IMG/VR virus record: IMGVR_UViG_2788500220_000013
Location: 44,872 to 108,871 of that record
Reading direction: 5' to 3' (one strand)
DNA length: 64,000 bases
From: a virus
Taxonomy: Duplodnaviria > Caudoviricetes
Shown here: positions 17,679 to 64,000 of the stretch, piece after piece
Position numbering within the stretch: the stretch's first letter is position 1
Layout of the letters: every line of letters begins with the position of its first letter
Notes under the pieces: model-generated
Told to the model about the DNA's origin: nothing
Seen by the model: only the letters and a program-made list of their open reading frames with translations
Database searches by the model: none
Position numbers and translations under genes: made by a program

Positions 17679-18230
17679 CTAATCTTTTGTTAGATAACCT
17701 GCTTGAGCAATTACATATGCATCTGCGGCATCGTAGCATCCTGGTTCTAAAATTGTTTGATTCTTTCTAGGCCCTGATTTTAGTGTCTTGGTCGGCCAGT
17801 TGAAGGCTACCCGTTCAGAAACCCATGTATGTACCTGTTCCTTTGTAGGAGCCCCACCCTTAGACTTGCGGACAATCTTTAGGCCAACTAGCTTCCTTGC
17901 CGCGTTGACATTAATATATTCTGGTTCAAAATCAAATTGTTGTTGTACTAAATAACCCACTATCCCATTAAACCTGGCCAATGTTAGCAGGGTCTTTGCA
18001 GAAGATAAACCAGGTCGAAATGCTTGAAGGTTCTCCTCAATATAGGTTTTAGTTATATTATACGGCGCGGCTATAATAGACAGATGTTCTGATGCTTCTT
18101 GTGCCTTCTTAAAGAGGCCTATATGTTTAGACAGTGGTATATACCCCATCGCAACTAGTTGGCCCTTAGGGCCTAATACACACCACCCAATACATGATGT
18201 TGATATATCAAGGCCTAAAATATTATCCAC
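17679..18230 (-). CDS. RuvC-like (RNase H fold) Holliday junction resolvase
   Basis: 'ILGLDISTSCIGW', 'YIEE', 'DAADA' catalytic pattern. GTG start overlaps the upstream TAG. Confidence 0.82.
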   Translation of the reverse strand: MDNILGLDISTSCIGWCVLGPKGQLVAMGYIPLSKHIGLFKKAQEASEHLSIIAAPYNITKTYIEENLQAFRPGLSSAKTLLTLARFNGIVGYLVQQQFDFEPEYINVNAARKLVGLKIVRKSKGGAPTKEQVHTWVSERVAFNWPTKTLKSGPRKNQTILEPGCYDAADAYVIAQAGYLTKD

Positions 18231-21200
18231 TAAAAATCTACCTTGACACGAAACACATACCCATCACTGTTTCTCTTAATAATAGGTCTAGCTAGGTTTG
18301 TTCTGGCTACAACATTCAAGTTTTCATCATGAAAATTTAAACCGGTGATATAAACAAACTCTGATTCATTTTCACTGGCAAAATTTGATGCATATAATTT
18401 TTCAAACTGAGGGTTGGAGGAAGAGTTTATTGTCCCTGCATCACAGGGAACATGGATCTCCATGATATGAATGTTTTGATCTCCTGCCATCTTTACCTCA
18501 AACTGTTCCTTACCATAATATGGTATAACTGGAGATTTTATAACAGATATTCCTTCTTCATAAATTATACTACCTGCATCTGCCCACTTAGCGTGGGGTG
18601 TTTTAGCATCAGCACGATAAAGACCACCAATCCCATTATCACGCATTCGAATTCTTACCTTACCATCAGAACCGGTAACATCAGAATCATATATTTCGTA
18701 CGTGTTTGGTTGAATCGCATTTCCATAAAATAAGTTTGATGCATCAAAAAACACAACTTCGTTCGACGACCCATCCCTAGTTCTCTGAAAAATTGTCAAA
18801 ACAGAACCTGGTGCAATACCAGGATTTTCTGGAGAAGCACCCATAATTGCAGCCATGGTTCCAGATGCCTCTTCTGGTGTCCCTTCACCCAAGCTATCAA
18901 CCTGAATAAGGCCTGGGTATAACGTTTCTTCAGGAATTAGGTTCGTCAAAGAAATCTTACTATAGTCTAAACTACCAAAATCGTTCGTATATTTCTCCGT
19001 TTCAGAACCAGAAACAGGGTGGGTTGTTATTGAGCCAGAACTTAATAACCGAAACCCGGGAAAAAATAGACCGTTGTCACAAGGAAGTACAGTTAAATTA
19101 CGCTTTCTAATTGATGACGTCGCAAACAAATACTCATTCGCCTCAAGGGGAGTTTGCACCTGGACGTCTATCCTAGATGCAGTTAGATTTAGTAACCTCG
19201 GATAATCTTTTCTAACAAATTCTCTACAAAAATTCTCTAAATTTAATAAATGACCACCTACACCAAATGACATAGCAACATTAAATGGGTCATCCGTTGT
19301 TGTCGTCATATTTTGGAAAGGTGTTAATAAAACATCTCTTTCACGCGTTTCCTTAACAAAAAACGGAGGAACATAAAATAATAGACCATCACCCTGATTA
19401 ATTGAAGATATTCCATACATCGATGATGTTACAACTTGTTCTAATGATCGATAATGATCCCATACCTTCAAATCATGAACTTCTGCATTTAAGGGATGAT
19501 TAAAAGCGTATGTTCCATGTTCTAATGCATCTAAACCAGAACCTACATTATCGCCATAAATTAGGCCCTCGGAGACTGATGTGGCTGAATCAAAGAAGCC
19601 ACCAATATAGTGCTGGTTTGGCATCGCTGTCACATCTAGGTTATTTCTACCCTCATAAAAATTACCTATGAATACAGCACTAGGGTCACCTAGCTCCTCA
19701 TCGAGATGTGTTATATGATTATCAAATTCCTGAGGAATTACTGAACCTGATTGGATTACAAACTCAGAATCAACTTTACCATCGATTACAAATGATCCGG
19801 TCCCGTTATTTACTGCATCGGTACCCCAGCGGATGGCAACATGATGCCAGTGATCCCTCTTTAATGAATTATCAGAAGATGCGAATATCAGGTCAGTAGG
19901 TGTCCCTTCACCTGTCATTGGATCATAGGGTTCAACCCCACCATACCCTGCAGTTATTAAATGCTCATTATTCTCTATAATATTTCCTGATCCATCATAA
20001 AGCGGAATTGTAGACGGAGGAACTTCGGCCGATGAGCTGAGTTGTAACATTATCCTGAATCCGTCTAGTTCTTCATCATAATTGCTCGTTGAGCTACCAG
20101 ACACTAATGAAACTGTATAGCTGGATGACATATGGAAAATTGTCCCAGCTTTAAATTCAGGATATATAGGGCCGCCGAAGTCAAATCCTGAGTATAGTAT
20201 AGCTTCTGATGGTAGGCCCAGATTTGTGTCACCTGGATCTATGGTAACATTACCGGCTGGGCCCAAGATATTTTGGGTTAAATGTATAACATTACCAATT
20301 CGATTGACAGTAATTGTATTAGTGCCCATGTTACCATGGCCATTCACACTATTTATAGCTATTTCTACTTGTTCAGCAACATCGGTACAAGGCGGGAAAG
20401 CGCCTAAGGTGCCAATACCAATAAGGACACCGGAAGCTGTAACATTACCAGTTGCAGACCAATGTACATCTTTATCAAAGTAATATACAATGCTGGTGCC
20501 ATTAGAGTCTGTAATCGTGAACCCGTCCTCAGCTGGAACATCTGTGTCTAAGTCAGCAGCAACGGCCTGGCCGCCGCCATCATCAAAGATTGTGATTGTT
20601 GCAACAGCGGCAGTATTAGGTTCTTCATCACGGATATAATACCTGGGATTAATATAAAAGTCAAATGTGAATCCCTCAGGAGGACTGTAGGGGATTACCT
20701 TTGGAACTTCCGTTGTAATTGCAGCTGCCGGATATATTAGCACAGAATCTGATGGGACGTTGGATGCCGTAAAAAAGTTTAAGCTATGATAGTTTGTCGT
20801 AGCCCAATGTAGCGAAGGGTACATACTTCTATAATATGGAAATAATATTTGCCTCGTAACATTTTTTCGGCTAGTGTCACTAGTAAATCTTACAGAAGGT
20901 TCAAACCTTAATACTTCTACTACTTTCTTTTTTCTTTCACTTGGCCCTGAGCTGTTTATTGATACGGGTGTTGTAGGAATACCAGTGTTCGGGTCTAGAG
21001 AGCCCATGTAATTATTTATAGAGCCAAAAATATCTGTTACGCCCAAGTCTGATGCAGATATGACTAACTCACTTCTTATAGATTCTAAATTTTCATCCTC
21101 AAATATAGATGCAGCGTCGCTAAATGCGCGCAGTTTTTGGGCCTCTTTCTCTATAGGCGAACGTTGGGCAAAAACATGTACAGTACCTGTCATCCCAGAT

Positions 21201-21301
21201 GGTTGACTGCTCTCTACTGATGCAGATACAAATTCCCTTCTAGGATGAGTTGTTAATGATAGGTTTTCAAAATGATCTTTTGTTAGCTCAAATATAGCCA
21301 T
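18230..21301 (-). CDS. Virion/baseplate protein with LamG-like domain and C-terminal tail-collar-like module
   Basis: 'FTFDFYINP', 'WHHVAIRW', 'VHDLKVWD' (LamG-like). The C-terminus is paralogous to that of 21408..22742. Confidence 0.7.
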   Translation of the reverse strand: MAIFELTKDHFENLSLTTHPRREFVSASVESSQPSGMTGTVHVFAQRSPIEKEAQKLRAFSDAASIFEDENLESIRSELVISASDLGVTDIFGSINNYMGSLDPNTGIPTTPVSINSSGPSERKKKVVEVLRFEPSVRFTSDTSRKNVTRQILFPYYRSMYPSLHWATTNYHSLNFFTASNVPSDSVLIYPAAAITTEVPKVIPYSPPEGFTFDFYINPRYYIRDEEPNTAAVATITIFDDGGGQAVAADLDTDVPAEDGFTITDSNGTSIVYYFDKDVHWSATGNVTASGVLIGIGTLGAFPPCTDVAEQVEIAINSVNGHGNMGTNTITVNRIGNVIHLTQNILGPAGNVTIDPGDTNLGLPSEAILYSGFDFGGPIYPEFKAGTIFHMSSSYTVSLVSGSSTSNYDEELDGFRIMLQLSSSAEVPPSTIPLYDGSGNIIENNEHLITAGYGGVEPYDPMTGEGTPTDLIFASSDNSLKRDHWHHVAIRWGTDAVNNGTGSFVIDGKVDSEFVIQSGSVIPQEFDNHITHLDEELGDPSAVFIGNFYEGRNNLDVTAMPNQHYIGGFFDSATSVSEGLIYGDNVGSGLDALEHGTYAFNHPLNAEVHDLKVWDHYRSLEQVVTSSMYGISSINQGDGLLFYVPPFFVKETRERDVLLTPFQNMTTTTDDPFNVAMSFGVGGHLLNLENFCREFVRKDYPRLLNLTASRIDVQVQTPLEANEYLFATSSIRKRNLTVLPCDNGLFFPGFRLLSSGSITTHPVSGSETEKYTNDFGSLDYSKISLTNLIPEETLYPGLIQVDSLGEGTPEEASGTMAAIMGASPENPGIAPGSVLTIFQRTRDGSSNEVVFFDASNLFYGNAIQPNTYEIYDSDVTGSDGKVRIRMRDNGIGGLYRADAKTPHAKWADAGSIIYEEGISVIKSPVIPYYGKEQFEVKMAGDQNIHIMEIHVPCDAGTINSSSNPQFEKLYASNFASENESEFVYITGLNFHDENLNVVARTNLARPIIKRNSDGYVFRVKVDF

Positions 21302-21324
21302 ATGATTTCACCTGGTTTATTATC

Positions 21325-21369
21325 TTTCAAACTATTAGTTAAGTTAATTTTCAAACTATAACTATTAGT
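21325..21369. repeat. AT-rich intergenic direct repeats
   Basis: tttcaaactat at 21325 and 21349; actattagt at 21331 and 21361; they overlap an ATAGTTA motif. Confidence 0.6.
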
Positions 21370-21407
21370 CTCTTGTATACCATTATGCATGATACACATA
21401 CCAACCA

Positions 21408-22742
21408 CTAGAAATCAAGTCTAACTCGGACGGTTATATCCTTTTCATCATTTTTTTCAATTGGGCGGGACATCTTCGCAACAGCTAAAAGATTATCATT
21501 CGCATCATATAGACCCACGGTAGTTGGAAATGTAAATGATCTTTGCACATCCTCCTGACCTTCATCAATTACTGTGATTCTGTTGTCATCGTCCGTATAG
21601 GTTGGGTTGGCGGAATAATTAAACTCATCAGCAGTAGCCCTGCAAAATATTAGCGTAGAATTAATATTTGTAATATTTTGAAATGTTGCTGCAGTAAGTG
21701 TACCAGATTGAAATCTGCAAGATGCAAGGTGATCTACAATATTATCAATTGAGCCTGATATCATGAAATCTGGATAAAATGTGGGTGGCCCTAGGGCTGC
21801 ACGCCAATCACCCATTTCTTCCTTACTACCCATTACAATACTGCCACCGGGACAATCATCGACAGTATCCAGATCAGAGTCATAATCACCCTGGCGCATT
21901 GCATGAATTCTTCCCAGGCATGGTTGTTTAGGGGCCCAGATTTTATTTAGATCTAGAACAGCTATTCCTGCATCATAGAACATTAGGCCGACCGTGGTCT
22001 CTGTATCGCTGGCGTCAACGATGTCCGCGACCTCACCACCGAATGTAACACGTTTTGCAGTTGCAGATCCGATGTCAGTATAGATTTGTACGCTACCTGT
22101 TGATGTAGTATGGATATTATCATGTACATCTGTCATGGGGTTCATGGCGTCCAGACCAGTGGCAGCTTCGCCGTTGGCAACGCCCCCATAGTCAGGGTTA
22201 AGGTATGTATTACCAGCTAGAGTACCTGATTGATAGAAACGAAGTGCAAACGTCTCCCGTTTGATTTTGTCTCTTGCAAATAGACGTTTAAATGACAGAA
22301 ACATTGCTGCATCAATTTCTGCTGTTTCATCTTTATTGCCAAAAGGAGTAGTAAATGCTGCATCTGCATCACCCAAAAGTGTTTGGGCAAATTGTTTATA
22401 GTTGTATGTCTTTTCTCTCATCATAAGACTTTGAGATGTATAAAGCCTTTTATTTGATGAGTCAAGGCCGGTAGAAGCAGCAAGGACGGCTGGGCCCTCT
22501 GGCTTAAGGCCTACCGTCATATCGAAAATTGCATTTGAACTTTGCAAAGTAAAGTCTTGATCATAAACAGTCTGAAACAAGGAAGATGTAACACCCGGGC
22601 CGATACCACCCGTCACGAATACTTCATAATGTTTTCTAGTTACAGATCCAGAAACATCTTCTTGAATGATATCAACTAGTTGATTTAATGCTGACCTGCT
22701 AGTTTTTATATCAGCTGCTGAAATTTCTTTAAACGTTGCCAT
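21408..22742 (-). CDS. Virion/baseplate structural protein
   Basis: C-terminal 'EFNYSANPTY...TTVGLYDANDNLLAVAKMSRPIEK...VRVRLDF'; located in the structural block. Confidence 0.7.
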   Translation of the reverse strand: MATFKEISAADIKTSRSALNQLVDIIQEDVSGSVTRKHYEVFVTGGIGPGVTSSLFQTVYDQDFTLQSSNAIFDMTVGLKPEGPAVLAASTGLDSSNKRLYTSQSLMMREKTYNYKQFAQTLLGDADAAFTTPFGNKDETAEIDAAMFLSFKRLFARDKIKRETFALRFYQSGTLAGNTYLNPDYGGVANGEAATGLDAMNPMTDVHDNIHTTSTGSVQIYTDIGSATAKRVTFGGEVADIVDASDTETTVGLMFYDAGIAVLDLNKIWAPKQPCLGRIHAMRQGDYDSDLDTVDDCPGGSIVMGSKEEMGDWRAALGPPTFYPDFMISGSIDNIVDHLASCRFQSGTLTAATFQNITNINSTLIFCRATADEFNYSANPTYTDDDNRITVIDEGQEDVQRSFTFPTTVGLYDANDNLLAVAKMSRPIEKNDEKDITVRVRLDF

Positions 22743-22754
22743 TTATATTCCCTT

Positions 22755-23465
22755 TTATCTAGATATCTGAACTTCGAATTCTTTTGTTGCACCAGATTGT
22801 ACACCTACAATGCCTACAACGGATGATATCACCGTTTTATCCCCAGCATTCCCGTACACATCAAACTGTGCATCTGTTATTGATTTGGTCTCAATCTCAA
22901 GTTTTAATTGGGACCCCCCAAGTGCAGTTATACTAGCATCCCGGGGAATGATATATGTTGCAATATTATTACTATCAACGTTATCAGGGGTCTCAGACTT
23001 CATTTGTAAAAACATATGTGGGAGTTTAGCTATAAATGCTTGATCTCGAAGCTCAACATCAATCGAGCTTTCGTTAATAATACTCTGGGTTATTGTAACC
23101 GTTCTTGAGGAGCCGGATCCTGATCTGCTCATATCCAATGTAGAACTTGTAGAATCTAGGCCGTCTCCCCTGAGTGATAATGACGGAAGCCGAAGAAGGT
23201 TTGGGTTTGATATACTAACTAACTTATGTTTAAGTGCTAAATTTCCAATGGTTTGAGCTTCAAAAACCGGAGTATTTTTCTCAATCTTCTCTTTTCCTAC
23301 AGTTCTACCGAACTTTCTTATTACTTCATAATCAACTTCATCATCACCTAAGGCAAATTTTACAATAGAAAATGATCCGTCGTTTCGTGCTAAAAATGCT
23401 CGACCAACGTCAGTTAGTACAGCATCAATTATAATATTGTTAGTTGAATGATCTAAAAAACCCAT
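22755..23465 (-). CDS. Virion/baseplate structural protein
   Basis: N-terminal 'IDAVLTDVGRAFLA...IVKFALGDDEVDY'; strong SD (AAGGAG). Confidence 0.7.
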   Translation of the reverse strand: MGFLDHSTNNIIIDAVLTDVGRAFLARNDGSFSIVKFALGDDEVDYEVIRKFGRTVGKEKIEKNTPVFEAQTIGNLALKHKLVSISNPNLLRLPSLSLRGDGLDSTSSTLDMSRSGSGSSRTVTITQSIINESSIDVELRDQAFIAKLPHMFLQMKSETPDNVDSNNIATYIIPRDASITALGGSQLKLEIETKSITDAQFDVYGNAGDKTVISSVVGIVGVQSGATKEFEVQISR

Positions 23466-23481
23466 TTATATACTCCTTCGA

Positions 23482-23488
23482 TAAATAT
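23482..23488 (-). promoter_or_regulatory. Putative late-promoter motif ATATTTA
   Basis: Recurrent motif, just upstream of the SD of 22755..23465. Confidence 0.45.
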
Positions 23489-23492
23489 ATTG

Positions 23493-25328
23493 TCATTTTC
23501 CTGTCCGTAAATCTTTAACATCAATACTGACTATTTGGCTCTTTTGCCGGTCTGTATTTATAACTTGCAATTTGTAACGCCCTTCTGTGTCCTTTGTGCT
23601 TACTGACAGTAGCCCAAGATCATGATCCTGTTCATCTACAATTGATAAGTATTCCGGATCAAAGAATATGCTACATTTTTGGTGGCCACTATCTGTTATT
23701 GAATCAGATGTTAGGCTGACATCCCCTATGCCAAGATTTGAATTCTGGATAAGATAAAAATTTGGATATGGCTTGGGAGCCCCTTCGGGGGATATCATTT
23801 TCTTTACCAGTCGGTTTGTATTGACATCAAATGTTACAAGAAATTGTTGCGAATAGTTTGAGCTAAAGTCATGTGCATCTATACTACATAAGGTATATAT
23901 GTATTCTGACTCTTTTGTAAATTCATAATCAACATATATTGTGGATGGCTCGTCCATTTCATGAACCCTTGATGACCTCGGCGTTTCTTTTCTTGGGTCA
24001 GGTATTTCGCTATCGTCAAAATCATATTCTGCTAATAGTTCATATGGATCGTTTACTGTCATTCGGCGAAAAACCTGAAATCTTTTTACATCGCGGGTTG
24101 AAGTAACAGGAAAACTCCACATCATCATCATTTTTTTGTCTCTATAATCCCATATAAAATCTAGATCCTGGGGAGGAGGGGGAGGATTATATTCCCTACA
24201 AACAACATGAGATGATGGGCTCGGCCTAGATGAAATTAAGCCAGTTGTAATATATGCCTGGCCGGTTTCTTCATTTAGGGCTTGAAATTGTACCATCGCG
24301 ATTGCCCTAATAGAGTATCGATATGCCGAACCATATTTTACTTTTGAATCAAGGGCTGATGAAACTGATGAGGCTGCAATTATAATCGGTCGGTGGCGGC
24401 GAACTCTTCGATCTGATGTATATTCTATTTTGTCTACCAGGTATCCAATAATCTTAACAGCATTTTTATACGTGCCGGCGCTAACAGGCTTTGTCATAAT
24501 TGGCCGGAAGTTAGGTATAAATTCGTAGTCAGATATTACACCTGGATTACTTTGCAATCTTGCAGTCCGTTGTAGGTCTAGTGACTGTTTTGCCAAATTT
24601 GACAATTCACCAGCAAAAGGATTTGCAGGATCCATTATAGATTTCTTTAATATAGATCCTAAAAACTTATCATTAAACTGTGAATAATGATTAACATTTG
24701 CCAGCTCCCTAGACCATGATGACCGATATCGACGCCTCTGGCGTGTCCTAGTGGAGTATGAGTATACCCCTTGATCTGCTAGCTTTCCGGAAACTTTCAT
24801 TATCCAGTTTCCGGCAACCCTCGAGGATGTTACACTGTTTAATAGCTTTGCAACATCTGCCCTTGAGTCCGGTAAGTCTTTTTTCTTTCCCTTTGTCTCA
24901 GACTGTGATCTTACTGCCACTGCCAAACCCATACTTCTAGAGGCCTTAGTTTCGATCTCCCTATCTTGAAGATTTAAAGAGGAATATCCCCTTGTTGCAA
25001 CATCAGTTTCACTCTGGATTCTCCACATGTTTTTATGCAAAAGGCGGTGAACGTTTGAAGCGGTTGATATGTCAACTGCAAATTCATTATCAACAGACAC
25101 ATTGGATCTTACGTCAACAGTCTCAAACATTAACCTAACATATCTGGGAACCTTTCTAGAAATTAATACTTCATTATTTTCATCGTATACGCCGAAAGCA
25201 ACGGTGTTACCCCTATCATTTGTCTTTTCATCTTTTTCAAAAAAATTATATTGAAATTCTGTTCTAAACTTTCGTACTTCCGGAACGTCTAAAACAGTCA
25301 TAATTTTTGAAGGATATGATATTGTCAT
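23493..25328 (-). CDS. Putative virion protein with FN3-like domains
   Basis: 'DSKVKYGSAYRYSIRAI' and 'PPPPQDL..W..P....FQVFRR...YIYTLCSID' follow the FN3 pattern. Confidence 0.6.
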   Translation of the reverse strand: MTISYPSKIMTVLDVPEVRKFRTEFQYNFFEKDEKTNDRGNTVAFGVYDENNEVLISRKVPRYVRLMFETVDVRSNVSVDNEFAVDISTASNVHRLLHKNMWRIQSETDVATRGYSSLNLQDREIETKASRSMGLAVAVRSQSETKGKKKDLPDSRADVAKLLNSVTSSRVAGNWIMKVSGKLADQGVYSYSTRTRQRRRYRSSWSRELANVNHYSQFNDKFLGSILKKSIMDPANPFAGELSNLAKQSLDLQRTARLQSNPGVISDYEFIPNFRPIMTKPVSAGTYKNAVKIIGYLVDKIEYTSDRRVRRHRPIIIAASSVSSALDSKVKYGSAYRYSIRAIAMVQFQALNEETGQAYITTGLISSRPSPSSHVVCREYNPPPPPQDLDFIWDYRDKKMMMMWSFPVTSTRDVKRFQVFRRMTVNDPYELLAEYDFDDSEIPDPRKETPRSSRVHEMDEPSTIYVDYEFTKESEYIYTLCSIDAHDFSSNYSQQFLVTFDVNTNRLVKKMISPEGAPKPYPNFYLIQNSNLGIGDVSLTSDSITDSGHQKCSIFFDPEYLSIVDEQDHDLGLLSVSTKDTEGRYKLQVINTDRQKSQIVSIDVKDLRTGK

Positions 25329-28300
25329 TATATTTCCTCCGAAGACGGCGTTGATATAGCCACAAAAAATTCATTAAATGAACTATAATTTTCGCCGCGG
25401 CGGCGGGGGCGGACCATTTTAACTACCCTTCCATCTTCTTGCTCAACATCAATTAACATCTCTGATAACATGTCTTGATTTAGAAGGCCCTTCCCGCTAG
25501 CTGACTCTTGAGTAGCATCTATATCTACTTCAAAATCATCTGGATCAACTGGCAATAAAAATACTCTATCAAATAACTTCGGTGACAGTGCTTGATGCAT
25601 AATAGCATCCCTAGAAAATAATCCAGAACTGCATAATGCCCTAAAGTTATTTAAGTCTTCAGTTGTTAAATGATTTGCTATAACATAAGTTCTTGACCTG
25701 GGCCCTGCATATTTGCGGCGCCTAAGGCGATGGTATTTAGAAAATATTCTACCCTTAGATGTAAGCAGCCTTGAATACCTTCTAGAAAATACCCTTCCAA
25801 GGCCTCGCTTACCCCCAACCTTAAACATTCCAGCAAACATTGACATAGGATTTGAACCCATGCGTGCTTTTGTCATAGTTCTGTTTGCTTTAAAAACCCT
25901 AGAGCGTGAAATGCTAGAATATCGCTTTTTAGTTTTTACTCTGTGCTGTATACTCTTTCTTTTCCTTATCGGCTTTATTACTCTTTTCTGAGGGGGACAT
26001 GCCTGTTTTCTAGCCTTACGAGGGCTGGTTGTAACTCGAGGGCGTATCCAGGTTGCTGTATCGTTTAGGGTCAATACTCTTTGACGGGATTCACCATCTA
26101 TATTAATTTTTTGTAATAAACTAGCAACAGGTATTGTCCCATTCCTTACCCAGTATTTGAGTTTTTCATTAGCTTCCATTATCTTTAATGTATTTGCAGC
26201 TCCATCGTCGACTATTAGATCAGACCATATGTCATGTTGAATAAATGTATTTTCATCAAACTCATAACCAAATAATAGTTGATAGTATTTTCTTAATAAA
26301 AAATTAGTCATATGATTGGATAACATTTTAGATGCCTGGCCGGTGCCGAGATAATCATATACTCCTGACTCTAATATGTTCGTCGCTGTCTCTTCACTTT
26401 CAAAATCATTATCTGACTGCTTTTCAATTTTTAATCTTGAAAACGTTGCATTCTTTATAACGTCTTCATATGAACTAAATTTATATCCATCTGCAACAGG
26501 GGAAAATGCATTTGGTAAAAGAAACATTGATATATCAAATAAATATTTTTTAGGTTTAAAGACCAGGTCTTCATACTCTAAATCGCGCTTATAAACTAAT
26601 ATCTCAATAATGTTTTGTTGTGATGCAATCTCAGTCGACTCTTTTGACCCTAAAGTATATGGAGGATTGTATAACGCATCTATTAACTCTGCTGGAATCC
26701 CAACCGCCAAGGTGCGAATATTATCACCTACCCTGCCTGACATTATTGCTTCCGAGGCAAATGCTTTTACTGCCGATAATTCATTTTCATTAATAACTTG
26801 ATCTGCAGGAAGATATGAACCATCATTATTTCTAGGAAATAGTTTTTCCCTGGCAGCATTTAACAATATGAACTGTTGAGGATTTAGATCTCGCAAGAAT
26901 TTCTTACTCTCCTTTGTGTCTAAAAGCAATAAGCTATCTTTTGTTGTAGAAGATCTTGTGTCTGATTTTAAATCAAAGAATGATGTAAGTTGTTCTGATG
27001 CTGTCTCTAGAGTAGAGCTTAAGGCCTGAAGAAAACTTAGCATTTGATTTACAAAAACTGTTTCACGTTCCAGGTCACTAATAAATGATTGAATGTCAGA
27101 TGTCAATGTTGCGGATGATTCATTACCCTTTAGTGAAGATAAAGCAGCACCTCGAGACAATCTTTTATTATCTTTCTTATTAAAGAAGTTGTTAGATAAT
27201 AATGATCCTGACTTCTGGATAGTTGAAATTAACTTTGTCTGGCGGGCTCGGGCTGCAGGACTATCAACAATGGCTAGTTCTGAAATCGTACCCAGGGCCT
27301 CCAGCATATTCTTATTATTAGAATAGTTGTATAATACATGAAGCTCACTATTATCATGGGTTTGTACAAAGTTAGCAGAAACATATCTTGAGAATAGTGA
27401 ACAAAATATCTCTAATAAAACCATTAATAATGTATCTTCATCCCACCCATTAAACAGTGTAACCCCGTTATCATCAAGGTAACTGCTGTCATTTGATGCT
27501 GCAGCTATCTCGGCAGCAGACTCTTCTAACTGCTTGGCTAAATCAACAATAACTGCCATAATATTTTTTGACTGGCGGGGGCTACTTACAGCAGACTGTA
27601 GTACAGAATATACTGAGGATCTGGATATCTTTATTGAGTTTGCATCCCTTCCTGATGTTGCACTTTCAATACTAGGGACATTGTCTGCAATCTTTGAAGC
27701 TTTTACTGCAATTCTCATCCCTGTTGTGGCTATAGGATTTTTTGAAGATGAAAATAATCGCTCGGCGGCGCCGAGATTAATTAACAAATTCTTAGATATT
27801 GAAGACTGTGTTAAGTCAGACATATAAGGGCTAAAACTATTAACCCTTGTTAGTTTGACAGGTTTCTTTTTTGTATTTCGTCTAGGCGATTTCCTGTTTC
27901 TTGAAGGAGTCACGCGTTCGTCTGTTGAAGTATCTGTGTCCGTATCCTCTATTGTATCCCTAATTTCAATTAAATATCTCAATAACATATGCTTGAGTTC
28001 TTGATCCTCTTTACTCATATTAAGTAAGGCAGCTGTAACAGCTAACTCCTCATCAATAAGAGATGTATTAGAGATTCCATCAATTAGCTCTTTTATACGA
28101 GATAAAATATCAATAAAAACTGAATGGGGGTGCAGTACAAAGTTTTCATCATCTAAATTAAGAAGCTTCTCTATAAACTTGACAACATCAGAAGACGTAC
28201 TGTTAAAATTTTTAGCAAATTCAGAATACTCTTTTGTACTAAATCCGCTTCTTTCCTCCTTGCCAAATCTAAGAATATTATCAACATATGCTACAGACCC

Positions 28301-32421: not shown

Positions 32422-32423
32422 TC

Positions 32424-49752: not shown

Positions 49753-49758
49753 TAAACA

Positions 49759-50247: not shown

Positions 50248-50347
50248 AAACTGTTTGTCCTTACCACCTATCGTAACTAAATATTGCCCTTAATAAATTA
50301 TCGCAATATATAGGCGAATAATTCAAGGCTATAAAGTAAACTATCAA

Positions 50348-51268: not shown

Positions 51269-51271
51269 GGA

Positions 51272-54075: not shown

Positions 54076-54427
54076 TTTCTTTATTCCCTTGCATTAACGG
54101 GTTATCCGCCTGATTTATCGAAGGTACCTCAAGGCTCCCGTGAATAGACGTTAATGCATGGGCAATTTCTAAAATTGACTCCCTTACTTCCCTAACATTC
54201 TCTAATACACCTCTTATTTCAGGACTATTATAAAATAAAGGTGTACTTAAAACCTTAGAGATAGTAGCGTATTTATCATCCAGCATATCCAGTGAAACCT
54301 CAAGAACATCTTGTACCCTAATAATAATCAACCCAAATCTTATAAGGTAAAATAAAGATACGGCCAGGCATACTGCCAAAATTGATATTATTACTAGTAA
54401 TACAGTCGTTGAGGTAGCAAAAATCAT
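54053..54427 (-). CDS. Membrane-anchored hypothetical protein
   Basis: Hydrophobic N-terminal ~35 aa followed by a helical soluble part. Confidence 0.7.
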   Translation of the reverse strand: MIFATSTTVLLVIISILAVCLAVSLFYLIRFGLIIIRVQDVLEVSLDMLDDKYATISKVLSTPLFYNSPEIRGVLENVREVRESILEIAHALTSIHGSLEVPSINQADNPLMQGNKEIGNEKAN

Positions 54428-56914: not shown

Positions 56915-57781
56915 TCAATCAGAACTAACGGCTCTACCAATCATCGACTCCCAATCACGTTCTGCAGACTTTCGAACCTCAAGGTTCTTTTCCCAAACTG
57001 CAGTTAATACAGTCGGATTAATGCCACACTCATCAGCTACAAACCTAATTGCATTTAAATCCTTAGGAAAACAATGGCCGCCAAAACCCATACTTCCGTC
57101 AGGGCCGGGTACTGAGAGGTGAGAATTACCGATTCTATCATCATATAACGCATACTCTACAACCTTATCAAAGTCAACATTAATTTTATCACAAACCTGT
57201 TTCATTTCATTTGCAAAACTTACTTTTGTTGCAAGAAAACAATTTATAAAATATTTTACTGTCTCTGCAACGTTAGCGCCGGTCTTAACAATTGGCACCT
57301 TTGGAAACGCTTTGCGGTACATAGTCTTAACTTTTGTTGATGCAGGGCGGGGGCCCCCGATAATAATCCGATTTTGATTTTTAAAATCATTATATGAGTT
57401 TGCTTCTGTCAAAAACTCAGGATTAAAAATAACAGTTATGTGAGAATAACGATCATTCAATCTATCAGTAGTACCGGGCTCAACCGTTGATTTAATAACT
57501 GCAATCGTTGACTTATTGAGTCGGCGGTTGGCATCATTAATATCACTAATGGCCGTCTCGACAATCCTTGTATCACAACGTCCAGATTGGTTCATGGGTG
57601 TCGGTAAACAAACAAATATAATTTCATCAACCTTATCAACTAACTCACTGATATTTTCGACTGTTGATTGTTTCCCGGGATCAATATCATACGTCTCAAC
57701 ATTAAAGGCATTATTCATACCTTCCCTAATTGCAGATCCTACAAACCCCTGTCCTATAATTCCGATTGTTTTCTTTACCAT
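56915..57781 (-). CDS. ugd: UDP-glucose/GDP-mannose dehydrogenase family protein (short; lacks the C-terminal domain)
   Basis: GQGFVG, VCLPTP, IKSTV.PG, NPEFL, catalytic GFGGHCFPKD. ATG 57781 preferred to TTG 57805. Confidence 0.88.
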   Translation of the reverse strand: MVKKTIGIIGQGFVGSAIREGMNNAFNVETYDIDPGKQSTVENISELVDKVDEIIFVCLPTPMNQSGRCDTRIVETAISDINDANRRLNKSTIAVIKSTVEPGTTDRLNDRYSHITVIFNPEFLTEANSYNDFKNQNRIIIGGPRPASTKVKTMYRKAFPKVPIVKTGANVAETVKYFINCFLATKVSFANEMKQVCDKINVDFDKVVEYALYDDRIGNSHLSVPGPDGSMGFGGHCFPKDLNAIRFVADECGINPTVLTAVWEKNLEVRKSAERDWESMIGRAVSSD

Positions 57782-57795
57782 TTTATCTTTATCCT

Positions 57796-58644
57796 CTATG
57801 GGCAATGTTTTGTATCTAAAAACTCACAATATTTACATGAGTCACGATTTTTAAAAAATAAACCCCTCCGAACAGAGCTTATCATATTTGCAACTAACTT
57901 ATCAGCCTTCGCGGCGGCCTTTGGGCCAACTGATACTTTGACAAGTTCGCATGTTTGGCCAGGTGGTGCATCTCTCTTTAAGAGAACAAACCCACAGTGA
58001 ATATCCTTTGGGTTAACATTATATTTTCTAACCCAATAATTCTTATATAAAGCTAATTGACTAGTTACTAATACATCACGTTTCTTGTTGGCATGCCAGC
58101 CCCATTTAGGTGCAGTTTTCCAATCAATGATCCAGCCCCTCCATCCACCTCGTGGGGTGGGGGTTTTAATAATCCCATCAATGAATCCCTTAAACTTTAA
58201 GTCATCATTAGGAATCGCTTCATAAAGCTCTTGCTCTGCAGCAACATATTCCCAACCTGGAAAAGCTTTGTCCATAAAAGCTGGCAGATCTGAAATGGCA
58301 TTGGTCGCCCATTCGACCCATGAATCCACATAGTTATGAGGCCAAGGCTTATTCCCTTTTGCCTCAGCTATTAACTTCTGCTTATTAATATATTCATCTG
58401 AATCATAGCCACGTTTTTCCCATGCTTGACGAATCGATGCTGCCATCTTCTCAAGATCTAGTTCACGGGTCTTTAAAAAATGCTCACACGCTTCATGAAC
58501 TATGGTGCCATAATCGAGAAATGGTGATACTTCAAATGTATCAATTTTGTCAATCTGCTGGAGTTTATGACGCCAAGAACATTCTTTCCAGGTCCGGACC
58601 TCAGAGTATGATATATGAGGCTTATTTGTGGGAAAATTAGTCAT
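57796..58644 (-). CDS. PD-(D/E)XK nuclease, Cas4/AddB-like with a 4-Cys motif
   Basis: 'ISYS....WKEC', 'GTIVH', 'GFIDGI', 'IIDWKT', 'QLALY', 'CKYCEF....CP'. Confidence 0.88.
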   Translation of the reverse strand: MTNFPTNKPHISYSEVRTWKECSWRHKLQQIDKIDTFEVSPFLDYGTIVHEACEHFLKTRELDLEKMAASIRQAWEKRGYDSDEYINKQKLIAEAKGNKPWPHNYVDSWVEWATNAISDLPAFMDKAFPGWEYVAAEQELYEAIPNDDLKFKGFIDGIIKTPTPRGGWRGWIIDWKTAPKWGWHANKKRDVLVTSQLALYKNYWVRKYNVNPKDIHCGFVLLKRDAPPGQTCELVKVSVGPKAAAKADKLVANMISSVRRGLFFKNRDSCKYCEFLDTKHCP

Positions 58645-58649
58645 AGTTT

Positions 58650-58677
58650 ATTATACAAACCTCTACATGATTGTTCA
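58650..58677 (-). promoter_or_regulatory. Putative promoter TGAACA-N16-TATAAT (leaderless transcript)
   Basis: Perfect -10 ending 5 nt before the ATG; no SD present. Confidence 0.65.
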
Positions 58678-59667
58678 GCGATTAGTTACTAAAGTTTGTT
58701 CATCCTGAGCTATTTTAAAATCAGCCCTATACATCATCTTTGCCAACGTATCTAAATCAACTGTTGGAGACCACCCTAATTTTTCTTTAGCTTTAGAAGG
58801 GTCACCTAATAATATAGGCACTTCATGAGGACGAAGAAATCTAGAATCGAACTCAACATGATCATCAATATCCAAACCTGCATAATCAAAAACTAGCTCT
58901 AAAAACTCGCGTACCGTTTTAGTTTGTCCGGTTGCAATAACATAATCATCAGGTTCATCTTGCTGTAGCATCAACCACATGGCCTTTACGTAATCACCGG
59001 CATATCCCCAGTCCCGCTTGGCATCTAGGTTTCCAAGATATAACTTGTCTTGGAGACCTAACTTAATTCTTGCAGCTGCCCTTGTAATTTTTCTAGTTAC
59101 AAAAGTCTCGCCGCGGCGGGGCGACTCGTGGTTAAACAGGATTCCTGAAGATGCATGCATATTATAACTTATTCTATAATTCCTTATAAGGTTATGTGCA
59201 AACAGCTTTGCACATGCATAAGGAGATGCAGGAGTCATTCTTGTTTCCTCATTCTGTGGTACCATTGGGTTATCCCCATACATTTCAGAAGAGGACGCCT
59301 GATAGAACCTGGCATCTGGACATAGCAGCCTTGTGGCCTCTAATAGACGTAATGTTCCGAGTGCTATGCTATCGACAGTTTCTTCCGGTACATCAAATGA
59401 AACCCGGACATGTGATTGTGCTGCAATATTATAAATCTCATCCGGACGGTACTTATCAATGATGCTATATATTGATGTTGCATCATGTAAGTTCCCATAC
59501 ACCATGGTAAAATTTTTATTATTATAAATGTGATCTACTCGATCAGTTGTAATAAGGGATGTGCGGCGCTTTATGCCGACAACATCATAGCCTTTACCCA
59601 ATAAAAACTCGGCCAGATATGAACCATCTTGTCCGGTTATCCCGGTAATAAGGGCTGTCTTGGGCAT
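58675..59667 (-). CDS. gmd: GDP-mannose 4,6-dehydratase
   Basis: '[16 protein letters not shown]', '[10 protein letters not shown]', '[10 protein letters not shown]', 'SPYACAK', '[20 protein letters not shown]', 'KRDWGYA'. Confidence 0.97.
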
Positions 59668-60659
59668 TACTTTTTCCAGAAACTATATAGGTTTTTCTCA
59701 ATTTCATAATCAAAATATGCTACTTCATGTGCAGGTTGAGCCTCTGCCCAGGTAAACATTTCCTTAATTGTCTCCTCAAGATTTGTATCATCCTGAAAAC
59801 CTAAAAGATTCTTGGCCTTTGTGTGATCTGAGTATGCTGTGTGGACTTCATTTCTTTTTTCTAGATGTACAATTCCTGGTTCATAACCAAAATCCCTAGC
59901 TACCTTAGCTACCAAATTTGCAGCTTCGTTAATAGTCCATTCCTTATCAGCACCGATATTGAACGTTTCGCCACTATATTCTGTCATGAGCCTCTCAAAC
60001 GGTTCCATATAGAACTTAATGTCAGAAAAAGCACGTACCTGAGTTCCGTCACCAAAAATTGTAAGAGGCTCGCCACGCATTGACTGGCGGATCCAGATGC
60101 CGATAACATTACGGTATCTATCCCAAATATTTTGATACGTCCCTACAACGTTATGCGGGCGGACAATTGAATAATCCAGACCAAATTGCTCTTTGGCTAA
60201 TTTAAGATCCATTTCGACAGCATACTTTGCGATGCCATAAGGATCCTCAGGAGTCTGGGGCTGATCCTCTGTGAAGGGGGGATTGCCTTCGCCATATACA
60301 GCCATTGATGATGTAAAGATAACCTTCTGTACCCCAAAATTAATACATGCATTAATAACATTTGCAGAACAGACAACATTATTCATATAATTGTAGCGCC
60401 TAATATATGGGCTAAGCCCTTCAGCGGCATATGCTGCAAAATGATAAACATAATCAGGGTCTGTGCTACGAAATACTCGATCAACATCATCATGATCTTT
60501 AAGATCTACTTCATAAAAATCGACCCTTTCATCTACAGAGCTTTTAAAGCCTCCGGATAAGTCATCAATCCCTACTACATTATACCCATTGTTTAATAGA
60601 TACTTCGAAAAATTGGCCCCTAAAAGACCTGCAACCCCGGTAATCAACACTGTTTTCAT
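59667..60659 (-). CDS. NAD-dependent sugar epimerase/dehydratase (extended SDR)
   Basis: [23 protein letters not shown], '[12 protein letters not shown]'. Confidence 0.92.
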
Positions 60660-60681
60660 GTTTTGAAACTCCTTTAAAAAT

Positions 60682-60709
60682 ATTATAACATGCTAATATG
60701 AACTGTTCA
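60682..60709 (-). promoter_or_regulatory. Putative promoter TGAACA-N16-TATAAT with extended -10 (TGn)
   Basis: Minus strand: TGAACA gttcatattagcaTGt TATAAT, then AAGGAG SD and the epimerase ATG. Confidence 0.65.
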
Positions 60710-61642
60710 ATTAATACCCCTGACATTTGGGTATTTTGTCTTAAACCAATCGCATGTACTTTTCAATGATGTCTTAAAATCGGAATAAGGATACCATCTC
60801 ATTTCCATCAATTTATTATTTGAAGATGGTTTTCGGTATTGGCCAGAAGGCATTGATGTATCCCACACTATATTTCCCTCATACCCGATATTCTCTATAA
60901 TATTATTTGCAACTTCCTTAATACTAATCTCACCAGTATTACCAATATTAATGGGCCCGGTTCCATTATATTTTTCTAATAGAAAAAGAAGCAACCTAGC
61001 AACATCATCTGAATACGTGAATTCTCGGAGAGGTGATCCATCACCCCATAGTGTTACAATTGGCTCTTCGGCATTTTTTGCTTCGTATATTTTCCTAATT
61101 AGCGCTGGAATAACATGGCCATCTGTTAGATGGAAGTTGTCATTCTCACCAAATAGGTTATTTGGTATTGCAGTTATAAAGTTGCAACCATATTGTTGGC
61201 GATAGGCCTGGGACTGGATATCTAACATTCTTTTTGCGTATGCATACCCAAAATTTGACCTATGAGGTGGACCTTTATGAACCTGATCTTCTGTTAATGG
61301 ATATGTCGCAGAATCAGGATAGACGCATGTACTTAAAAGAGAAACAACTTTCCGAACCTTAAAAATATACGCTGCATCTAAGACGTTGGTATTCATTTGG
61401 ATATTTTGTGTATAAAAATCCGCAACATAATCTGTATTCCCTTTTACTCCACCAACCTTTGCAGCTAAATGAATAACATAATCTGGTTTGGTTTCCTCAA
61501 ACAATTTAAATGTTGCTTGGCGATCTGTTAGATCACAATCCTTAGAATCCAAAAAAATAAAGTGATAACTGTATGGGAGCTTAATGTTCTCCCTAAAGGA
61601 ATGACCGACCATTCCTGATGCACCGGTTACTAATACTCTCAT
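60707..61642 (-). CDS. fcl: GDP-L-fucose synthase
   Basis: TGASGMVG, HLAAKVGG, STCVYP, YAYAK, 'P.NLFG..DNF...GHVIPALIRK', 'WGDGSPLREF'. Confidence 0.94.
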   Translation of the reverse strand: MRVLVTGASGMVGHSFRENIKLPYSYHFIFLDSKDCDLTDRQATFKLFEETKPDYVIHLAAKVGGVKGNTDYVADFYTQNIQMNTNVLDAAYIFKVRKVVSLLSTCVYPDSATYPLTEDQVHKGPPHRSNFGYAYAKRMLDIQSQAYRQQYGCNFITAIPNNLFGENDNFHLTDGHVIPALIRKIYEAKNAEEPIVTLWGDGSPLREFTYSDDVARLLLFLLEKYNGTGPINIGNTGEISIKEVANNIIENIGYEGNIVWDTSMPSGQYRKPSSNNKLMEMRWYPYSDFKTSLKSTCDWFKTKYPNVRGIN

Positions 61643-61739: not shown

Positions 61740-62591
61740 TTACTTTAATTCTTGAAGTGCAGACGACAACTCATCAATATTATTAACACCAATTATTCTT
61801 GAACCGTTAATGTCTTTTAAGTAAGAGTCAGTTTTCCAAACCCCACGCAAGGACATATCACCAGGGACAACACGAGGCGCATTAGGTGGGAGGTATTTAT
61901 CAACAATAATGTTTGTCCCCCCAAAATATGATGCAATGATTGCATTTCCTCCACAAATAGAAATATGTTTTTCAGAAAGTGAGTGGGCCATTAATTGCAT
62001 GGTATTAAAGTCAACATTCCAAAGCTTCATTAAATCGTTTCCAGTATAAATGTTATCATATTTTTTGACCAGGTCATAATCATTAAATTGAATATTGCCT
62101 TGAAGGGGATCCGGAAAATCTAGATTGTTCGTGGGTCTTATATAGACAATATCATGATCTAAAAACTCTTCAAAAATTAATCTTAGTTCGTCTATCTCTA
62201 TCCTATTTCTAGGTGGGCCGTTCCACTCGCTACAACTTTTATTATTTACTACTAATAATTTGCTGCTTAAACCTGGTGTTGATTCCAGTAGGCCCCCAAA
62301 CTTTTCTTTAAAGGGTGGGTATATAAACTTAGAAATATCTAAATTATGTCTATATAAGTCTACATAATTATCACCCATATATATGCTGTGTTTTCTAGCT
62401 AATGACTCTTTATGAGAAGGCGAAAAATAATAAAATGGACTAGTAGCGCCACAACTTTCTGTCATTTTTAATTTGCCTTCTTTTAACAACATATATGCAG
62501 TTGGAATTGCAAATACTAACTCCCAAGAAAACTCTCCGTTAAAAGAAAATACACCGTCCTTAAAGGGGGCTGCTTTAATTCCTAATCCCAT
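61740..62591 (-). CDS. Hypothetical protein, probable GT-B-type glycosyltransferase
   Basis: N-terminal 'GEFSWEL', C-terminal 'HISICGGNAIIASYFG'; located in the sugar cluster. Confidence 0.5.
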   Translation of the reverse strand: MGLGIKAAPFKDGVFSFNGEFSWELVFAIPTAYMLLKEGKLKMTESCGATSPFYYFSPSHKESLARKHSIYMGDNYVDLYRHNLDISKFIYPPFKEKFGGLLESTPGLSSKLLVVNNKSCSEWNGPPRNRIEIDELRLIFEEFLDHDIVYIRPTNNLDFPDPLQGNIQFNDYDLVKKYDNIYTGNDLMKLWNVDFNTMQLMAHSLSEKHISICGGNAIIASYFGGTNIIVDKYLPPNAPRVVPGDMSLRGVWKTDSYLKDINGSRIIGVNNIDELSSALQELK

Positions 62592-62600
62592 ACTAAGCTC

Positions 62601-63350
62601 CTAATCTCTGAAGTGGTTATTAATCATGCTCTTATAAAGAGGGCAATTAATATTCCAGGGTTTTGCATCATACCAATAATGGTTTATGTGAACTGGGTGT
62701 TCAACATTTAAGCCTCTACAAAATGGTACCCCTTCTTCCCACTTTGTATGTGCAGCCCAACTATTCCAACCAAACCCAATATCTTTATGTGTATAATCAT
62801 ATCCGATACCCTTAAAATAACTGTTGATTAGTGACTGATCTGTACCTGGATACACAAAACCTCTATCTCTATGAAGTATACTCTTGAAATTTTCCCACCT
62901 AAAAAGTTTAATATCAGAAACAGCCATAACACCAGAATTTAGCACCGGTTCCTTTAAGTGATCAGTATGGCCAGGTATTAGTTGATGATTCACTGCAATA
63001 AACCCCTGGTCACCCGATGCTTTAATCAGGGCCGATCCTGGGGAAACTATAAATGCATCTGCATCAATGAAGATAAATTTCTCAGATAACTTACACAGGT
63101 TAAAAAGCTTGAAGCATACATTATGGGTTGCCTTTTGATTTTGGCCGAAATTAATTTCATCAGTTGGGCTACAGATCATAACATTTATATTATTTTCATT
63201 TGCATAATCCTGCACACTGGGTGGGAGGCCTTTTGTCAATATTGCTATCTCACTATCTGGAAAATGTAAGAGAGCATACTTTATCCATCCCTTACACATC
63301 AGATTATATTCCTTCTCATCAGAATAATTCATTACAGTAGTTACTAACAT
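62601..63350 (-). CDS. Glycosyltransferase family 8-like (GT-A)
   Basis: 'KLFNL', 'FIDADAF', 'LNSGVM', 'TDQSLIN', 'HINHY...KPW'. Confidence 0.82.
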   Translation of the reverse strand: MLVTTVMNYSDEKEYNLMCKGWIKYALLHFPDSEIAILTKGLPPSVQDYANENNINVMICSPTDEINFGQNQKATHNVCFKLFNLCKLSEKFIFIDADAFIVSPGSALIKASGDQGFIAVNHQLIPGHTDHLKEPVLNSGVMAVSDIKLFRWENFKSILHRDRGFVYPGTDQSLINSYFKGIGYDYTHKDIGFGWNSWAAHTKWEEGVPFCRGLNVEHPVHINHYWYDAKPWNINCPLYKSMINNHFRD

Positions 63351-64000
63351 TTACTTTCTTCGCTTCTTTCTATTCTTTCGAGTTGACTTTCTAGACTTAC
63401 TCTTATTCTTTGGGGGCACCGGCTTGGGTTGTGCCTGTTGACGTTCCTTGTCTGCTATCAATAATTGTGGCACATCAAAGTCAATTTCTTTTCGAGATAA
63501 AAATAATGCCTCATCGGCTTTTACTTCTGCAGGATTATTATTTCTATCAAATGTTGCATCATGTTCTTGCTTTATTATATCAGGGTGCATATGCCTGATA
63601 ATCACATGATCAAAAAATCTTTGTTTTCCCAACAAATGGGCAACTATAGTAAACTCATTGTCACAAAACCATGTAGCATACTCTGGATTGTAGATATAAC
63701 CAAACCTATCATAGTATTTTTTCCCTAAAATACAAAGAGTATTCAAGTCTTTCCTAAATCCGTCGAAAAACCAAAGTACACCGTCGGTATCTGAAAAGTT
63801 TTTATACATTGCTTCCTTTATAAGGAGATCATATCCTGGGATTTCAGGGACCATATCATCGGATGCCAGCAATAATATATCAAACTTCTTATTTCTTAAA
63901 TCTGCGTTTATTGCCTCAACTTTGTTCTTGTTATTCGAATAGCTGGCCGTTAGGTTCTTAAAATTTTTAAAATGACTTCTTACTATATCATTATTCATTG
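63351..64000 (-). CDS. GT2-like glycosyltransferase (5' end beyond the window) with a basic C-terminal tail
   Basis: 'KVEAIN', 'LLLASDDM', 'YDRFG..Y..Y..WFCDNEF', 'IRHMHP'. Confidence 0.75.
   Translation of the reverse strand, partial: MNNDIVRSHFKNFKNLTASYSNNKNKVEAINADLRNKKFDILLLASDDMVPEIPGYDLLIKEAMYKNFSDTDGVLWFFDGFRKDLNTLCILGKKYYDRFGYIYNPEYATWFCDNEFTIVAHLLGKQRFFDHVIIRHMHPDIIKQEHDATFDRNNNPAEVKADEALFLSRKEIDFDVPQLLIADKERQQAQPKPVPPKNKSKSRKSTRKNRKKRRK

Follow-up and report, generated by a model that had tools for sequence, protein, structure and literature searches.

A selected [ST]-Gly-Ser motif in distal tail proteins of an aquatic myovirus clade, and its relation to a phage sugar-gene cluster

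The window and its genes

The window analysed here is a stretch of 64,000 nucleotides, the final 64 kb of viral contig C13 (108,871 bp; IMG/VR record IMGVR_UViG_2788500220_000013), in an assembly of 4.9 Mb and 33 contigs. Its genes, all carried by the minus strand and of phage type (Table 1), include a block encoding tail proteins, in which the tripeptide [ST]GS (Ser or Thr, then Gly, then Ser) recurs, and a cluster of sugar genes. An earlier note on this DNA had read the two together as a candidate virion glycosylation system, in which phage glycosyltransferases (GTs) would modify outer virion proteins at an [ST]GS sequon. We find that the motif is real, selected, exposed and variable between lineages: it is ordered, it is a property of the protein, it is dispensable for the fold and it lies essentially on the proteins encoded downstream of the gp6-like wedge. 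The enzymes nominated as its readers, by contrast, do not track it.

Table 1. Features of the window and their [ST]GS sites (aa, amino acids; ORF, open reading frame; TM, transmembrane)
Feature	Position	Strand	[ST]GS sites	Expected sites	Remarks
ORF	3..758	-	3	0.17 (from composition)	
Major head protein	928..2793	-	1	0.84	chance level
Portal	8981..11089	-	0		
TerL	11143..12732	-	1		
Mre11-Rad50 fusion	13463..16621	-	0		
Primase	16639..17610	-	1		
RuvC-like resolvase	17679..18230	-			
Three distal tail ORFs (1023, 444, 236 aa)	18230..23465	-	6, 3, 2		
Of these, 1023-aa ORF	18230..21301	-	6	1.38 (from composition)	
Of these, 444-aa ORF	21408..22742	-	3	0.39 (from composition)	
Four tail-block ORFs (317, 882, 1481, 611 aa)	23493..33377	-	1	~2.4	
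GT2-TPR glycosyltransferase (SunS/GmaR-like)	33410..34591	-			within tail block; Pfam GT2, phrog_13126
2361-aa fibre or baseplate protein	34658..41743	-	10	3.72	
349-aa tail protein	41743..42792	-	2		homologues in relatives
1186-aa distal baseplate protein	42793..46353	-	9	1.33	LamG_3 domain
510-aa baseplate protein	46356..47888	-	5	0.72	directly downstream of gp6-like wedge; sites at residues 216, 265, 301, 351, 371
gp6-like wedge, 616 aa	47902..49752	-	0		inner baseplate
gp25-like protein, 162 aa	49759..50247	-	0		inner baseplate
306-aa and 558-aa ORFs	50348..52948	-	2 each		upstream of gp25; hub or spike region
124-aa ORF and conserved 247-aa ORF	53332..54427	-			between GT4 pair and baseplate genes; two TM-like segments in 124-aa ORF
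GT4b, 398 aa	54424..55620	-			Pfam; tandem with GT4a
GT4a, 414 aa	55605..56849	-			Pfam; tandem with GT4b; pair directly upstream of baseplate genes
Short NDP-sugar dehydrogenase, 296 aa	56915..57805	-			
PD-(D/E)XK nuclease	57796..58644	-			among nucleotide-sugar genes
Nucleotide-sugar genes (dehydrogenase, Gmd, GalE-like epimerase, Fcl-like synthase)	56915..61642	-			
283-aa ORF, weak GT8-like 249-aa ORF, 215-aa GT fragment	61740..63998	-			no assigned family for 283-aa ORF
GT fragment phrog_14945, 215 aa	63351..63998	-			cut by contig end

A megablast comparison of the window with phages gave no match, and the large proteins encoded downstream of gp6 have almost no family matches apart from LamG_3. 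The four ORFs at 23493..33377 are rich in Ser and poor in Gly; of the four, wide conservation among relatives is seen for the 317-aa ORF alone.

Enrichment of [ST]GS in the tail block

The tail block was fixed beforehand as the 15 ORFs of 18230..52948, leaving out the GT2-TPR gene (11,042 aa in all). It holds 42 [ST]GS sites, compared with 12.6 expected from whole-protein shuffles, 13.6 when shuffling was confined to 30-aa blocks and 14.2 when it was confined to 12-aa blocks (z about 8, and still 7.7 at 12-aa blocks); none of 3000 shuffles reached 42. The enrichment over a composition null that the earlier note had proposed to check is therefore present, and its by-eye counts (9, 5, 6, 10, 3 and 3 in the ORFs it named) proved exact, as did the zeros it gave for Mre11-Rad50, the portal, Gmd and the GT4s and the single sites it gave for TerL and the primase.

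The order of the residues matters. SGS occurs 25 times in the tail block (7.06 expected, Poisson p 1.3e-7) and ranks first among the 8000 tripeptides, followed by GSI and TGS, whereas the scrambled orders are found at chance (GSS 0.99-fold, SSG 1.27-fold, GST 0.53-fold, TSG 0.53-fold). The remainder of the contig (24,255 aa) shows just a 1.5-fold excess of [ST]GS, and the patterns [ST]GxT, S[GA]xT and DGY are not enriched in this phage. The extended pattern is hydrophobic-[ST]-G-S-hydrophobic: over 1092 unique sites, a hydrophobic residue is found at a frequency of 0.50 at position -1 and 0.52 directly after the last Ser (background 0.33), and a charged residue at 0.07 and 0.09, respectively (background 0.20).

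Distribution among relatives and control phages

The motif is clade-wide, being found in about 60 uncultured relatives and in the cultured Microcystis phage Mel-JY01 (45 sites, 6.4 expected), Flavobacterium phage immuto (61 sites, 13.7 expected) and Rhodothermus phage RM378 (22 sites in a single gene cluster, 4.0 expected). In every one of the IMG/VR relatives, the proteins encoded downstream of gp6 carry it at 5–9 times the expected frequency; in their gp6-like, gp25-like and GT4 proteins it is absent or nearly so. Orthologues of the 1186-aa protein have 13–18 sites each, about 2.2 being expected. In IMG/VR, 20 proteins are related to the 510-aa protein at 46–52% identity; its family comprises 1671 clusters at 50% identity. 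In the genomes of Mel-JY01 and immuto, enriched ORFs concentrate in the tail-fibre block, and a few more occur elsewhere, for instance at the ends of the Mel-JY01 record. The motif is specific to distal tail proteins; in the window, the inner baseplate proteins have no site and the major head protein is at chance.

The motif is absent from control myoviruses without GT4-family (PF00534) genes, namely T4, S-PM2 and HTVC008M, and these three phages rule out a general property of myovirus fibres. The ratio of the motif to its scrambled orders is 3.3 in the window and 3.6–7.3 in the relatives, as against 1.4 in S-PM2, 1.2 in HTVC008M and 0.7 in T4.

These data bear on the possibility that the excess is an artefact of composition, of low-complexity Gly/Ser/Thr stretches, of repeated domains or of a DNA-level signal. 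Local composition alone does take the fibre proteins of S-PM2 and HTVC008M 1.7- to 2.2-fold above composition expectation. However, the excess survives shuffling within 12-aa blocks, and the whole-protein and block shuffles, together with the scrambled-order controls, rule out composition. A DNA-level signal is ruled out by the diversity of codons at the sites: the 42 sites of the tail block are encoded by 30 distinct 9-mers, which indicates selection on the protein rather than on DNA. Repeated domains explain a part only. One of the nine sites in the 1186-aa protein is the LamG strand motif S-G-S-I-D-E (canonical strand G-x-[IL]-D-E) and further sites are fibre repeats of the type SGSF-x-GDGSGLTGI, yet LamG and fibre repeats account for only a few sites, and the same pattern is given by aligned orthologous sites of a non-repetitive protein, the alignments joining orthologues of 31–58% identity. 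We therefore give an artefact almost no credence. Note that, in immuto, the N-terminal parts of two proteins of the tail-spike region (L022:34632-38442) consist of repeats [ST]GSF[ST]GSFxGDGSGLTGI, which supply many of the 8 and 26 motif copies of these proteins.

The density of the motif is graded among positive lineages, from 4 to 14 sites per 1000 aa, and some lineages do without it. Three orthologous Logan contigs, L069, L070 and L071, lack it in every distal tail protein (3 sites compared with 2.3 expected in 3851 aa, 3 with 3.5, and 2 with 1.3, respectively), and the 484-kb phage LR756508 is motif-poor (7 sites, 2.9 expected). In the motif-free lineages no substitute is enriched, whether [ST]GxT, S[GA]xT, DGY or any other tripeptide. 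GC content is ruled out as a driver: it is 0.33, 0.36 and 0.49 at motif-free loci and 0.32–0.48 at motif-rich loci. An IMG/VR search for relatives of the motif-poor proteins returned nothing useful.

Site behaviour and structural setting

The behaviour of individual sites was followed in the 510-aa protein. Close relatives keep all five of its sites as [ST]G[ST]. Across 108 diverse members of the family there are 486 sites, compared with 84 expected. Individual sites come and go from one orthologue to another: at each of nine alignment positions, 25–55% of the members have the motif, and the occupancies of separate sites are only weakly correlated. When Gly is present, Ser or Thr is found at a frequency of 0.79–0.97 at the first residue and 0.59–0.97 at the third; when Gly is absent, the frequency is 0.35–0.72. 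Site 301 departs from this at its third residue, where Ser or Thr is less frequent with Gly (0.59) than in its absence (0.72); the alignment is gappy there. Asp and Asn are rare beside the Gly of the motif.

Exposure was inferred from substitution patterns. Charged or amide residues replace the motif at the site columns, and hydrophobic ones do so in only 5–16% of cases, which indicates that the positions are exposed, a point that the earlier note had proposed to check. The motif-free orthologues place other turn-type residues at the same columns (TNR, DQR, RGD, NEK, KQGN).

An AlphaFold (AF2) model built with a deep alignment (mean confidence score, pLDDT, 95.3) predicts a jelly roll resembling a carbohydrate-binding module followed by Ig/FN3-like sandwiches. 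In this model, site 216 joins a strand end to a helix start, site 265 a loop to a strand and site 351 a helix end to a strand, while site 301 forms a hairpin turn and site 371 lies in mid-strand.

The sugar-gene cluster and its target

The sugar-gene inventory given in the earlier note stands for the most part. Gmd, an Fcl-like synthase, an epimerase, a dehydrogenase, two GT4s and GT2-TPR were all found, but the GT8 match (E 7e-4) does not reach the Pfam cut-off, the dehydrogenase has only 296 aa and the 215-aa GT is truncated by the contig end. Gmd scores 463.7, above its NCBIfam cut-off of 415; the Fcl-like synthase has Fcl as its best match over its full length at 274.1, below the cut-off of 500. 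The dehydrogenase matches positions 76–300 of a profile of 413, without the C-terminal domain, and its gene overlaps that of the nuclease; in relatives the nuclease directly adjoins GT4a.

The end of C13 recurs on a second contig, C6, with a GT4a that is 100% identical, and C6 extends the cluster with three GT2s, a GT47-like enzyme and an FkbM methyltransferase. C6 contains scattered Ns, and its ORF pattern upstream of fcl differs (L145:1-20000); its glycan genes are preceded by three large motif-free proteins (806, 905 and 1590 aa). The glycosyltransferases encoded by the phage comprise two GT4s, GT2-TPR and GT fragments in the window, and three GT2s and the GT47-like enzyme on C6. No transmembrane segment was found in any of the sugar enzymes of the window and C6, which are soluble as judged from their sequences. 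When cluster ORFs were scanned against Pfam, none matched a family of flippases, polymerases or priming transferases, and polytopic membrane proteins were not seen either. The cluster is set among structural genes.

Some relatives have still larger clusters, with two GT2s, three GT4-like enzymes, a methyltransferase–sulfotransferase fusion, another GT and a radical SAM enzyme. The glycan island of the marine relative L072 (G002:C1:28000-47000), which encodes a 655-aa methyltransferase–sulfotransferase fusion as well as a radical SAM enzyme, hints at sugars that carry methyl or sulfate groups.

The premise that enzymes of the GT2-TPR type glycosylate proteins or peptides is sound, since the closest solved relatives of the window's enzyme are GmaR, SunS and ThuS. 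Its GT2 domain is clear (E 1.3e-10) and its TPR_17 match weak (E 0.01). The sole NCBIfam match is the SunS family TIGR04195 (E 4e-9), aligned over residues 10–302 with 35.7 bits, a score that leaves it outside the family (cut-off 350); ThuS aligns to residues 14–303. The GT4 pair has no match to the GtfA and GtfB families, its only NCBIfam matches being generic GT4 enzymes (MshA, BshA etc.) far below their cut-offs, and the analogy with a GtfA/GtfB pair was dropped for want of family support.

What the cluster modifies was considered separately from the motif. In immuto, liquid chromatography–mass spectrometry of the DNA gave canonical dA, dC and dT, with dG replaced by fdPreQ1 (PMC10516641), i.e. 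no sugar-bearing nucleoside. In the assembly analysed here, the only match to PF00303 (thymidylate-synthase type) lies on the host contig C17, the phage genome being incomplete, so that the picture is not that of DNA glycosylation of the T4 type. On both grounds DNA is an unlikely target. The GT4 pair is conserved in phages of cyanobacteria, Flavobacterium and Rhodothermus, and the acceptor would therefore be intrinsic to the phage. A protein target is plausible, although this does not make [ST]GS its address. The tail proteins have no signal peptide and no N-terminal hydrophobic segment.

The motif and the nominated enzymes

Co-variation of the motif with the GT repertoire, which the earlier note had put forward as a check, was negative for both of the enzyme classes it nominated, GT2-TPR and the GT4 pair.

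GT2-TPR is restricted to this phage among the relatives examined: 93 related loci, three long contigs of relatives and the Mel-JY01 and immuto genomes, both complete, yielded no homologue, and the relatives without it are as motif-rich as this phage or richer. Conversely, in the soil jumbo phage Tunturi_5 a homologue lies 4 kb away from a gene for a tail fibre, and the motif is not in excess. GT2-TPR was accordingly rejected as the clade-wide reading enzyme.

The GT4 pair, on the other hand, belongs to the core of the clade. GT4a is 62–68% identical in marine relatives and 26–41% identical in immuto, Mel-JY01 and RM378; the cultured phages that it matches are the same few that are matched by gp6. 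A nuclease–GT4–GT4 synteny is seen in nearly all loci with enough upstream DNA, L121 (10 kb upstream, no GT4 match) being an exception. However, the motif-free L069 and L071 retain the pair in synteny, along with GT2 or sugar-nucleotide genes, L070 retains GT4b, and the motif-poor LR756508 has a GT4a orthologue; the GT4 pair was therefore rejected as sufficient.

Three side observations concern GT4a. Among marine relatives it is better conserved than the gp6-like wedge or the 510-aa protein (46–52%). In Mel-JY01 (W01, 83441-84536) the orthologue is spread over two frames, 198 and 313 aa long. In RM378 (L043:8212-14008) the orthologue p013 and the 425-aa ORF p014 next to it are not beside baseplate genes; they are flanked by a PolI-like gene and by ribonucleotide reductase. 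A paper on moraphages (PMC12619734) reports that aquatic jumbo phages of Bacteroidota have four orthogroups of GTs in their core, and that lineage and the present clade may overlap.

Interpretation

The virion-glycosylation interpretation of the earlier note keeps its basis in a motif that is real, specific to the distal tail and exposed, and in a soluble sugar cluster, but it loses the enzymes nominated to connect the two. Two readings fit these data about equally well, and we rank slightly first the one that requires no modification, because the nominated enzymes fail to co-vary with the motif and because turn geometry by itself would put a Gly between hydrophobic strand ends.

In this preferred reading, which we hold tentatively and with less than even confidence, hydrophobic-[ST]-Gly-Ser-hydrophobic is a selected way of building surface connectors, used by most lineages of a large aquatic myovirus clade. 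The motif would occupy short exposed strand–strand or helix–strand connectors in the beta-sandwich modules of distal tail proteins, where Gly may supply a tight reversal and the two hydroxyl residues may serve as caps for the strand ends while leaving the connector free of charge at the surface; motif-free orthologues have Asp, Glu, Lys, Arg, Asn or Gln at that connector. The pressure for such a surface chemistry on host-contacting parts would vary by lineage, for example with the host envelope, and the sugar cluster would act on another target. The hydrophobic flanks speak for this account, as do the predicted positions of the sites, which are strand or helix ends, a hairpin turn and an irregular point in a strand. 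So do the independence of the motif from the GT4 pair and GT2-TPR, its graded density, the turn-type residues found in its place and the sites that belong to the LamG strand or to fibre repeats. Asn-Gly is depleted throughout contig C13 (26 compared with 42.4 expected in the tail block, 54 with 87.0 elsewhere; NGS occurs once, 4.0 being expected), which would fit avoidance of labile turn dipeptides and was counted on the same side.

Several observations weigh against it. Asp-Gly is not depleted in contig C13. The tripeptide is gained and lost as a unit, and the five sites of the 510-aa protein are predicted in five secondary-structure settings rather than in a single shared turn type. The capsid, sheath, portal and inner baseplate have exposed turns too and make no use of the motif. 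The hosts of positive phages are diverse (Microcystis, Flavobacterium, Rhodothermus), which weakens an explanation by host envelope. Finally, in three lineages none of the distal tail proteins has the motif although their folds are the same, and such a simultaneous loss points to a lineage-wide cause, not to local structure.

Some of the same observations favour the other reading, in which soluble GTs of the phage would O-glycosylate distal tail proteins in the cytoplasm, with [ST]GS as the whole acceptor site or as its core. The sites are exposed and found in unrelated folds and settings, a hydroxyl residue is near-obligatory on either side of the Gly, density is held in the 510-aa family while sites turn over, and loss is all-or-none at the level of the lineage. 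The clade's clusters bring many soluble GTs, methyltransferases and a sulfotransferase into the structural region, with the flippase, polymerase and priming-transferase families unmatched among the cluster ORFs scanned, and the tail proteins lack signal peptides. The DNA of immuto, with fdPreQ1 as its only modification, and the assembly, in which no phage-borne hydroxymethylase of the thymidylate-synthase type was found, count in the same direction, and the closest solved relatives of GT2-TPR are O- or S-glycosyltransferases of proteins or peptides. Nevertheless, we rank this reading slightly below the first. The reader is not GT2-TPR, missing as it is from all other motif-rich phages and present in Tunturi_5 without an excess, and the GT4 pair alone is insufficient, given L069, L071 and LR756508. 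Plain turn geometry also yields Gly with hydrophobic flanks. No cytoplasmic O-glycosyltransferase is known to use a strict tripeptide sequon, and searches for papers on phage virion glycosylation returned none. That the motif is an address at which the clade's own soluble enzymes attach sugar, in the cytoplasm, to exposed distal-tail connectors is possible on the whole rather than likely; the reading enzyme would then have been kept in motif-rich lineages and lost in L069, L070 and L071.

A lineage-wide switch could also come from a reader acting in trans that is not a GT: another Ser/Thr modification, a tail-assembly chaperone or a docking decoration protein, a factor that the motif-free lineages would have lost. 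The concerted presence or absence of the motif in all distal tail proteins, its behaviour as a unit and its restriction to one set of virion proteins would suit such a factor. We regard it as improbable, however: no candidate gene was found, and the 247-aa ORF, the 124-aa ORF and the nuclease are also present in motif-free lineages.

If the preferred account is right and the motif is unmodified, it offers a clear example in which lineage-specific selection shapes the surface chemistry of the parts of the virion that contact the host. If it is instead a modification site, tailed phages would write a glycan shield or adhesin coat on their host-recognition apparatus at a readable sequon, which would bear on host range, on the evasion of phage-binding defences and on the reading of the GT islands common in phages; a true sequon would be the first defined for phage virion glycosylation. 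In either case the pattern is visible in about 60 related loci, the protein family as a whole numbering over 1600 clusters, and the question is directly testable in the cultured members immuto, Mel-JY01 and RM378.

Comparison with known systems

Mycobacteriophage virion glycans, as described by Freeman et al. 2023, cited in PMC12619734, are found at the C-termini of capsid and tail-tube subunits, with no sequon defined in that account. The likeness lies in the phage's own glycosyltransferases and in virion proteins as suspected acceptors. The difference is that the candidate sites here are internal and lie in distal baseplate and fibre proteins; the major head protein has one site where 0.84 is expected.

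The chlorovirus PBCV-1 glycosylates its capsid protein at Asn. It shares with the present phage virus-encoded soluble glycan enzymes: the GT4 B736L of PBCV-1 is, at low similarity, the second-best solved homologue of the GT4 pair, GT4a matching it over about 300 residues (E 8e-6).

SunS, ThuS and GmaR are cytoplasmic enzymes that attach sugars to Ser, Thr or Cys residues in peptides or proteins. The GT2-TPR enzyme aligns over its full length with the ThuS/SunS family and, through its GT2 domain, with GmaR. It differs from the SunS family in its score (35.7 against 350) and in that no glycocin-type precursor was seen nearby, and the gene occurs in this phage only whereas the motif is clade-wide.

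The general O-glycosylation of Bacteroidota uses the sequon D-[ST]-[AILVMT] on exported proteins in the periplasm. It provides a precedent for a short sequon, likewise of three residues, but the tail proteins here have no signal peptide, and D-[ST]-[AILVMT] is at chance in this phage (55 compared with 51.9 expected), so that they do not resemble Bacteroidota substrates.

In protein structure statistics, two-residue beta-hairpin turns with Gly followed by Ser, Thr or Asn are known, as are ST-turns. The tail proteins of T4, S-PM2 and HTVC008M do not show a preference of this kind; Asp and Asn, the usual alternatives, are rare beside the Gly of the motif, and several of its sites are predicted at a helix N-cap, at a helix C-cap or in mid-strand. 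The resemblance to beta-hairpin turns lies in the central Gly, the small polar flanks and the hydrophobic strand ends, and residues 301–303 of the 510-aa protein are modelled as just such a hairpin.

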